DNA of 64,000 nt from Escherichia coli (GTDB lineage Bacteria > Pseudomonadota > Gammaproteobacteria > Enterobacterales > Enterobacteriaceae): the NCBI RefSeq assembly GCF_045037415.1, contig NZ_CP173440.1; one strand, written 5' to 3'. Position 1 is the stretch's first letter. Each line of letters starts with the position of its first letter. Shown here in pieces: positions 24,001-27,000 of the stretch. The position numbers were made by a program.

Positions 24001-27000
24001 GTGCCCACACTGCGGAAACAGTAGTGCTTTTGCGATGTGTACCTGCGGAAAACTTCTCTGTATTGATGGGCCTGATGATGTGAACTGCCCATGGTGTGGG
24101 AAAGGTTTGTCATTTCAGAGCGAGGGTGGAAATTCAGATTTTAACGTTAGCAGAGGACGCGGCTAATGAGCGAGTTCATTACACCTGAACATAAAATTAT
24201 TGCTCTCATTCTGGAGGCATCAGGGGAACCGACTGATGCTGATAAAGTATGCTGTCTTGGTAACATACCTGATGTTGCCCTTGCTGTGCGGCAGCTGAGA
24301 GAAACGGTCATTCAACACTGTGCAAGCGAAGCCATACCGGCGGAGAACACTCAAACAGTTTCAGAATGTCTTACCCAGCCCTTTTCTGACAAAATCCTCC
24401 CACCTCAAAACTCGGGTGAAAGCGAAGCTGATCGACCTGAGATTGAACCCGTCCATGCCGCTACTGCACTTCAGGGAAATGATAAGCAGGAAGCGCATAG
24501 TGAAATGGTGGATGATACAGCGTCAGAAGGCGTTCAGGGACTCACTGAAGAAGTTCCTGATGCAACCGGGGTCTTACAGACCGAGGCTTCCGTCACGGCG
24601 CAACCAGAAGACATGGATAAAACCAGTCCGGTTGTTTCTGACAACCTTTCAGCTGACACCGCAGTCAGTGCTTTACGGCCCGGGGAAGTACCTCAGAGAG
24701 TGGAGAATAAAACATCCCCTGCCCCCGGAAAAGTGCCGGAGGTGTTTATCATGCTGCCAAATGCACGGGCAGGTGAACCCTACGATGTTCGACTGGAAAT
24801 AGCGACCGATACAGGTGTTGAGGCAGAGATCACGGAGGTTAACTTCTCTCAGGACATAGGGCTGATATTTGATATCAATGAGCGACGCCTCCAGGGGACG
24901 CCAGGGCACAGCGGAGACTTTGAACTGACTGTGAAATGGTCATGCAGCTCACATCGTGATAATGAAAAAAAGTTACTTTTTGTCGTGAACCCTGATCCGA
25001 AAAGTCTCTGGAAAGTGATTGACCCGCCTTCTGATGCACCATTCTACAAGAAGAGTATCGACCACCAGAGTGTCTGTCGGTCAGGTATTCATATTGCCGG
25101 AGCAAGCCGTCGTGGACGCTCCCATGAACATGTAGGCTCTTTTCGTGACGACGATTATTACCTCAACTTCAGTGATGTATCCGGATGGAGTGTATTACTG
25201 GTAGCTGATGGCGCGGGGAGCGCTAAATATTCCCGGGAAGGCTCCCGTATCGTTTCTGAAACTGTTGGTAACTATCTCTTCAACCAGTTCAAGACTGAAA
25301 AAGGTCTTGAGATCAAAAACAGGGTCCTTCGCTGGAACAGTGAGGATCAGCGAGCAGTATGGGAGTTTATGAACCACCACTTCCGACAGGCAGCGGTACT
25401 GGCCGTAAACAATATCAGCAGTGCCGCAATTTTGGCTGAAGATAAAGTAAAGTCATTCTCAACGACTTTACTCGCGACCGTCACTTTTCGCGACGGTGCT
25501 GATCTTTTTGCCGCGTCTTTCTGGTTAGGTGACGGTGCGATAGCTGCATATGGACCTGCTGGCAAAGTCAGAGTGCTTGGGACTCCGGATAGCGGAGAGT
25601 ATGCAGGTCAGACGCGTTTTCTGGATGCCGATGCCGTCAGTGATGCCGGATTCAGTAAACGTATCAGTATCGGTAAGTGGAACGACATATCGCATCTGGT
25701 TCTGATGACGGATGGTGTTTCCGATCCCTGGTTTGAAACGGATAACGGGCTTCAGAATCCACAAAAATGGGACAGGCTGATGGCCGAGCTCTCTCCCCTA
25801 CTCACAGACCCTGAACATGCCTCGGCACAACTGGTGGAGTGGCTTAACTTTTTCTCTCCGGGAAATCACGATGATCGCACAATCATTGTGCTCTGGTGAA
25901 ATTAATGCGATAGCAGGTGGCTATTCATGGCAAATATAATTACATGCAAAACTAAGGATGGAAAAACCATTCAGTATGTCGATGAAGTCATCGGCTCTGG
26001 CTCAATGAAAGACGTTTATTTTTCTCCGGATAAATCATATGTCGTAGCCTTCTACCATAAACCTCAGAATGAACAGGCCCGGGAACGTATCAACATGATC
26101 ACCGGGAGGTACCGGCAGAATATTTTTGAGCAGACTGGTGGAGATTACTGGAAAGGTCTCTTCTGCTGGCCCACTGATGTGGTTGAGCACGCTGATAAGG
26201 TGGGTATTGTTGTACCTGCTTACCAGCAGCATTTCTTCTTCCGATATGGTTCCAAAAACAATGATTTCCTCGGGATCAAAGGACGTGAAAAGGAAGGGAA
26301 ATGGTTTGCCAGCGCGAACAATCAGAATAAATTTCTGGATCCGCGTGAACGTGGCAATACGCTTAACTATCTGAAGGTCTGCATCCTTCTAACGCGTGCA
26401 GTCAGACGAATGCATGCTGCGGGCCTGTGTCATAGTGACCTGAGTTATAAAAATGTGCTGATAGATCCGGAACTAGGCCACGCATGCATTATTGATGTTG
26501 ATGGGCTGGTGGTTCCGGGAAAATTTCCTCCAGACGTGGTTGGTACACCTGATTTTATTGCCCCGGAAGTGGTGAAGACAAGCCATCTCCCCAAAGACGA
26601 TCCCCGCCGCGTATTGCCGAGTATCGCTACCGACCGGCATGCACTTTCGGTACTCATTTACATGTATCTTCTTTTCCGGCATCCGTTACGGGGAGGAAAA
26701 ATTCACGATATCGATGATGAGGTCAGGGATGAGGCGCTTTCCATGGGAGAGCGGGCACTTTTTATCGAACACCCGACTGACAGAAGCAATGCAGTTAAAG
26801 TTAATCAGGTTCTCATCGTTTTCGCTCCCGTGGGCAGATCCTCAGAAAATCCCGTACACCATTATGGGGCCCTACCTGAAACCTCTCTTCGACCGGGCTT
26901 TTATTGATGGGTTGCATGATCCGTCGAAGCGCCCTACAGCCGATGAATGGGAGAGCGCCCTGGTAAAAACCGTCGATCTCATCCAGCCATGCCAGAACAA

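Follow-up and report, generated by a model that had tools for sequence, protein, structure and literature searches.

An apparent frameshift in a TerY-P kinase gene is most likely a sequencing artefact linked to the methylation motif GGTCTC

The TerY-P triad and its split kinase gene

In the 64,000-nucleotide stretch of DNA analyzed here (the window), three genes lie next to each other on the + strand, with a protein kinase gene in the last place. The first (23111–24166) is an intact ORF encoding a 351-aa vWA and TerY-C metal-binding protein (Pfam VWA, E = 2e-14; TerY_C, E = 3.5e-52), and the second (24166–25899), also intact, encodes a 577-aa PP2C-family phosphatase (Pfam PP2C_2, E = 2e-47, residues 316–561). 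The Ser/Thr kinase gene spans 25927–27427 and measures 1500 nt, encoding 499 aa, once one extra T is removed. As the sequence reads, it is split into an upstream ORF of 326 aa (25927–26907, + strand) and a downstream ORF of 262 aa (26639–27427, + strand), which lies in the +1 frame and overlaps the former. In identical reference plasmids, terW, terY, terX, and terZABCDEF are found upstream of the three genes. The TerY-P triad known from ter loci (Anantharaman et al. 2012, as summarized in PMC10542128) comprises a TerY-like vWA protein, a PP2C phosphatase, and a Ser/Thr kinase whose C-terminus bears a zinc ribbon. Judged by their sequences, the three genes of the window fit this known triad in a tellurite-resistance island, and the kinase appears to be an ordinary member of it.

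The original prediction, that a single-base indel at 26.81–26.83 kb splits one kinase gene into the two ORFs described above, was confirmed by alignment to intact homologues. Compared pairwise with the two nearest plasmids, CP034201.2 and NZ_CP140511.1, the 1551 nt of the kinase region (25900–27450) differed solely by one extra T. It lies in the TT dinucleotide at 26810–26811 (+ strand), at the lower edge of the predicted interval, where it shifts the frame at kinase codon 295/296; the junction reads CAGGTCTCATC in the references and CAGGTTCTCATC in the window. At this point every relative has an Eco31I/BsaI-type site, GGTCTC, and the window has a corrupted form of it, GGTTCTC (26808–26814, + strand). 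When one T was deleted in silico, the exact 499-aa kinase annotated on the nearest K. pneumoniae IncFIB/IncHI1B plasmids was obtained. Residues 1–295 of this reference kinase are the start of the upstream ORF and its last 204 residues are the end of the downstream ORF, all of them identical.

The frameshift divides the conserved features of the protein. The kinase motifs HSDLSYKN, DVDG, and APE are located upstream of it, and the RPTADEW motif, a Cys4 zinc ribbon, and the C-terminal domain are located downstream. Pfam Pkinase matched residues 154–269 of the repaired 499-aa protein (E = 9e-9), and the zinc ribbon, PCQNKDC...CPYCG (CX4C...CX2C), is C-terminal to this kinase domain; its Pfam zinc-finger match was weak (E = 0.38). 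Among the NCBIfam models, similarities (to LanL, LanKC, and Kdo kinase) were confined to the kinase domain and fell below the threshold. By its motifs, the repaired protein can be classed as a Hanks-type kinase with a zinc ribbon and a C-terminal domain.

Downstream of the kinase gene, the window carries a TnAs1 transposase gene (27834–30800, − strand). In many PLSDB relatives, the match to the kinase region ends at about 27408–27414, a few codons before the stop codon, a sign that the ter island has more than one 3′ junction. On a Raoultella plasmid (region L019, 6182–10077), the kinase gene is followed by genes for a 734-aa hypothetical protein and a LeoA/HP0731 dynamin-like GTPase. Together with the variable 3′ junctions, this layout suggests that the ancestral kinase module may have been longer and is truncated in the window. 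Farther along, 44284–64000 is an IS26-bounded multiresistance region with blaNDM-1, ble-MBL, aph(3′)-VI, qnrS1, ISKpn19, repM, mph(E), and msr(E). Save for two differences at motif sites described below, it is identical to p4313/18_1, p51015_NDM_1, and other such plasmids, indicating that the window derives from the lineage of NDM-1 IncFIB/IncHI1B hybrid plasmids.

The kinase gene in relatives and homologues

Megablast of the kinase region (25900–27450) against PLSDB retrieved 1086 plasmid records, mostly from Klebsiella. All full-length matches spanned 1550 nt of sequence against the 1551-nt query, and the same held in 57 E. coli records. The nearest records, pKpvST383L (CP034201.2) and NZ_CP140511.1, are both K. 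pneumoniae IncFIB/IncHI1B plasmids, and in both a single 1500-nt kinase gene is annotated after terW, terY, terX, the TerY-C vWA gene, and the PP2C gene. The allele was then assayed with an 81-nt query centered on the insertion, for which at least 99% identity is expected only if the extra T is present. None of 1046 PLSDB plasmids and none of 54 E. coli records matched at 99% identity, so all matched records are without the extra T. Similarly, a pattern scan that admitted either allele found the 24-nt in-frame form in all 10 metagenome contigs and the insertion in none of them. An exact look-up among 153 billion gene positions found no record of the 326-aa truncated kinase product, and neither allele had a match in a contig set with one genome per species.

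The kinase gene of a Raoultella terrigena plasmid, with 81% DNA and 91% protein identity, is one ORF of 499 codons, and it reads ...VNQVSSFSLPWADPQ... unbroken over the point where the window shifts frame. A two-ORF split is thus not the normal state of the homologues, which are single ORFs down to this more distant gene. The converse possibility, an error in the references and a correct window, was rejected, since the uninterrupted ORF is common to more than 1100 independent records.

As a separate observation, pKpvST383L (CP034201.2), aligned to 30850–43264, showed about 20 homopolymer-length indels against both the window and its other relatives. In its annotation, mph(A), mrx, and the TnAs1 transposase gene are broken by these indels, none of which falls at the kinase insertion site. 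They look like older long-read errors in the deposited record.

Private differences of the window at GGTCTC sites

The whole window was compared with its closest references, namely, NZ_CP140511.1 for 1–31642, NZ_CP050380.1 for 30823–45103, and NZ_ON081621.1 for 44284–64000. Against NZ_CP140511.1, three positions differed: 19, 6287, and 26810. The window and CP034201.2 share the same base at 6287, indicating that this SNP belongs to NZ_CP140511.1 and not to the window. Against NZ_CP050380.1, the window differed only at 41472, by one unit of a 9-bp tandem repeat, and against NZ_ON081621.1, differences were found at 53309 and 58255. This leaves five differences private to the window over its 64 kb, and four of them fall on the step between the third and fourth bases (T3 and C4) of GGTCTC, or of its complement GAGACC.

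These four motif-centered differences, at positions 19, 26810, 53309, and 58255, comprise three 1-bp indels and one C-to-T substitution. At position 19 (18–22, − strand), the relatives read GAGACC and the window GA-ACC; C4 is lost, seen as the absence of its paired G, and a cupin/AraC-like gene is frameshifted. At 26810 (26808–26814, + strand), the T is inserted between T3 and C4. The site at 53309 (53307–53312, − strand) reads GAGACC in the relatives and GAAACC in the window, a C4-to-T change on the GGTCTC strand that is synonymous in the ISKpn19 transposase gene. At 58255 (58253–58257, + strand), GGTCTC has become GGT-TC by loss of C4, which breaks a 730-aa Tn3-family transposase remnant into 482 and 242 aa. 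Neither of the latter two variants was seen elsewhere in PLSDB: the 53309 variant was present in 0 of 1854 records, and the 58255 deletion had no full-length match in any record searched.

All three of the private 1-bp indels are inside GGTCTC/GAGACC, and no private point difference occurs anywhere else in the 64 kb. The binomial probability that at least four of five differences fall at the motif is about 6e-13 when the T3|C4 dinucleotide (38 positions) is counted and about 5e-11 when whole hexamers are counted. Nineteen GGTCTC/GAGACC sites are present in the window, 4 corrupted and 15 intact, so that about 21% are affected; no flanking context shared by the corrupted sites distinguished them from the intact ones. 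The three genes frameshifted by the indels (a cupin/AraC-like regulator, the kinase, and a Tn3-family transposase remnant) are unrelated, and the substitution is synonymous, indicating that the common factor is the motif and not gene function.

The fifth difference, at 41472, is of another kind. The window has one copy fewer of the 9-bp repeat (TTCCGCTGC) than NZ_CP050380.1, NZ_CP140511.1, and CP034201.2. The missing copy, from the mrx(A)/mph(A) junction, has a length divisible by three and no link to the motif; its absence may be real copy-number variation.

Origin of the insertion and comparison with known systems

Because the insertion is one of four private differences at the center of GGTCTC, a motif methylated by Eco31I-type systems, it is most likely a base-calling error and not the mark of a dead gene. 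In Enterobacterales, such systems modify 5′-GGT(m5C)TC-3′ and 5′-GAG(m6A)CC-3′ (PMC4659465; PMC12679398). Eco31I, a type IIS restriction-modification system present in E. coli ST131 EC958 and ATCC 25922 (PMC4659465), has an m6A methyltransferase, M1, and an m5C methyltransferase, M2 (Bitinaite et al. 1992, as cited in PMC4659465). Its m5C is C4 and its m6A pairs with T3, and these two positions coincide exactly with those of all four private differences. We consider it very probable that the extra T at 26810/26811 is a nanopore consensus error at a methylated GGTCTC and that the true gene encodes an intact 499-aa kinase.

The error could have arisen as follows. The assembly, which we infer to be of nanopore origin, would have been built from nanopore reads only or insufficiently polished. 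The host, presumed to carry an Eco31I-type methyltransferase, would methylate GGTCTC on both strands at adjacent positions (GGT-m5C-TC/GAG-m6A-CC), thereby disturbing the signal of both strands over one and the same T3–C4 step, so that the consensus might at times drop C4, double T3, or call C4 as T. In that case, the underlying gene would encode the intact 499-aa kinase of the TerY-P triad and would lie in the tellurite-resistance island of an NDM-1 plasmid of the K. pneumoniae IncFIB/IncHI1B kind. Apart from these sites, the window appears to be error-free, homopolymers included, matching a modern nanopore consensus. Within the 64-kb window, no GGTCTC-specific methyltransferase is encoded, and our literature search found no direct report of GGTCTC/GAGACC methylation or of Eco31I in Klebsiella; the Eco31I locus was not within the two regions of E. 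coli EC958 that we examined. On the backbone of NZ_CP140511.1, outside the window (region L005, 7032–9739 and 18938–20182), there are a cytosine-5 methyltransferase gene adjoining a type II restriction endonuclease gene and a separate site-specific methyltransferase gene.

A real, recent, and private mutation, by which the TerY-P kinase became a pseudogene in this one plasmid, is an unlikely alternative to a base-calling error. The sequence as given does carry the insertion, accessory plasmid genes do decay, and the neighborhood has been heavily rearranged by TnAs1 and IS26. However, the allele is absent from all other copies examined, three further private changes strike the same two positions of this hexamer, and the 64 kb show no private point differences elsewhere; since the motif makes up about 0.2% of the window, the insertion alone would land on a GGTCTC hexamer by chance with a probability of about 0.2%. 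A real frameshift would spare the catalytic core in the 326-aa product but deprive it of subdomain XI and of both the zinc ribbon and the C-terminal domain, leaving the PP2C phosphatase unopposed; this private loss of a kinase from a poorly understood stress or defense signaling triad would be of modest interest. The original prediction had rightly read the two ORFs as one gene split by a single base and had named a sequencing error as the alternative, but its preference for true inactivation is not supported, the insertion being private and linked to the motif. Nor is there support for its further suggestion that a dead kinase changes the signaling output of the module, since the insertion is absent elsewhere and is one of four GGTCTC-centered private differences.

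That all four changes are real and were directed to the motif, we regard as very improbable. An Eco31I-type methyltransferase or restriction system of the host would then mutate its own recognition sites on a resident NDM-1 virulence/resistance plasmid, with the kinase as one casualty and its PP2C partner left unopposed. Possible routes are deamination of m5C or damage to the target base by the cytosine methyltransferase, and it speaks for them that every change is at or beside the m5C position and that the one substitution, C to T, is the classical product of m5C deamination. Three of the four changes, however, are 1-bp indels, which deamination does not produce. Moreover, mutation of about 21% of the sites with no background of substitutions would amount to hundreds of mostly frameshifting mutations genome-wide and would be expected to be lethal, and in thousands of other records these sites remain intact, which argues that they are not natural hot spots. 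Still harder to credit is a phase-variable switch or a programmed ribosomal frameshift that regulates kinase expression, an idea suggested only by the bare +1 change of frame inside a signaling gene. The original prediction had pointed to a slippery homopolymer as a possible sign of phase variation; none is there, as the change is from a single T to TT, outside any repeat tract, and the longest homopolymer within 30 nt is 4 nt long and lies elsewhere. No length variation was seen at the site, more than 1100 other copies all being in frame. The stretch AAT CAG GTT CTC ATC contains no slippery heptamer of the form X XXY YYZ, and the homologues are single ORFs, both of which argue against programmed frameshifting. 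Escape from restriction by loss of the site was also considered and rejected, because 15 intact sites remain and Eco31I cuts outside its recognition site and not between T3 and C4.

As a base-calling error, the insertion serves as a warning that long-read-only assemblies can yield systematic false pseudogenes at strain-specific methylation motifs; here, three genes in one 64-kb window would have been falsely broken. The three further sites probably belong to the same class of artefact, and other apparent pseudogenes from the same source should be distrusted. The error pattern also predicts an active Eco31I-type (GGTCTC) modification system in the source strain.

With the extra T removed, the locus shows no difference from the known TerY-P triad; without that correction, the kinase is interrupted at codon 295. 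The likeness extends to gene order, strand, and a place directly downstream of terW/terY/terX, as well as to the Pfam domains (VWA and TerY_C, PP2C_2, and Pkinase) and the CX4C...CX2C pattern after the kinase domain. The stand-alone TerY-P-like antiphage systems have the same three types of enzyme, but their kinase carries an OB fold (Gao et al. 2020, as summarized in PMC10542128), whereas the kinase here ends in a zinc ribbon. PADLOC models gave no TerY-P match: the kinase had weak, generic kinase-domain hits to PD-T4-6, mad6, and MkoA (E of at least 1e-5), and the vWA and PP2C proteins had none. The Eco31I restriction-modification system is alike in its GGTCTC recognition sequence and in having modified bases at all four difference positions; it differs in that the window encodes no such system, which the source strain is predicted to carry.

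The closest parallels to the errors themselves come from nanopore assemblies. Modification-induced read errors have been described, including in K. pneumoniae and plasmids (PMC11610603), and in ONT assemblies of K. pneumoniae outbreaks, strain-specific methylation-induced errors caused false exclusions (PMC11610573). In ONT R10.4.1-only assemblies of Listeria monocytogenes, SNP and indel errors were concentrated at GAAGAC, a type IIS motif with 6mA and 4mC adjacent on opposite strands; it was the sole troublesome motif of 50 methylated ones, and about 2% of its sites were affected (bioRxiv 10.1101/2024.07.12.603236). Some features set the window apart from these cases and count against a base-calling error. 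Published methylation-induced ONT errors are mostly purine/purine or pyrimidine/pyrimidine substitutions (PMC11610573), whereas indels account for three of the four differences in the window, and 4 of 19 sites (about 21%) are affected here versus about 2% for Listeria GAAGAC. In addition, the motif is GGTCTC/GAGACC, for which we found no published report of ONT errors, and for the window the sequencing technology and the methyltransferase are both presumed. The likenesses are nevertheless close. As in Listeria and K. pneumoniae, the errors would be confined to one short nonpalindromic type IIS motif in an assembly that is otherwise essentially error-free, with correct homopolymers; as at GAAGAC, they fall on modified bases that are adjacent on opposite strands, and only some of the sites are hit. 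By analogy, the arrangement in the window can be regarded as a direct counterpart of the Listeria GAAGAC case, and the kinase frameshift is most likely best filed as a sequencing artefact linked to a methylation motif, in an ordinary and well-known plasmid locus.
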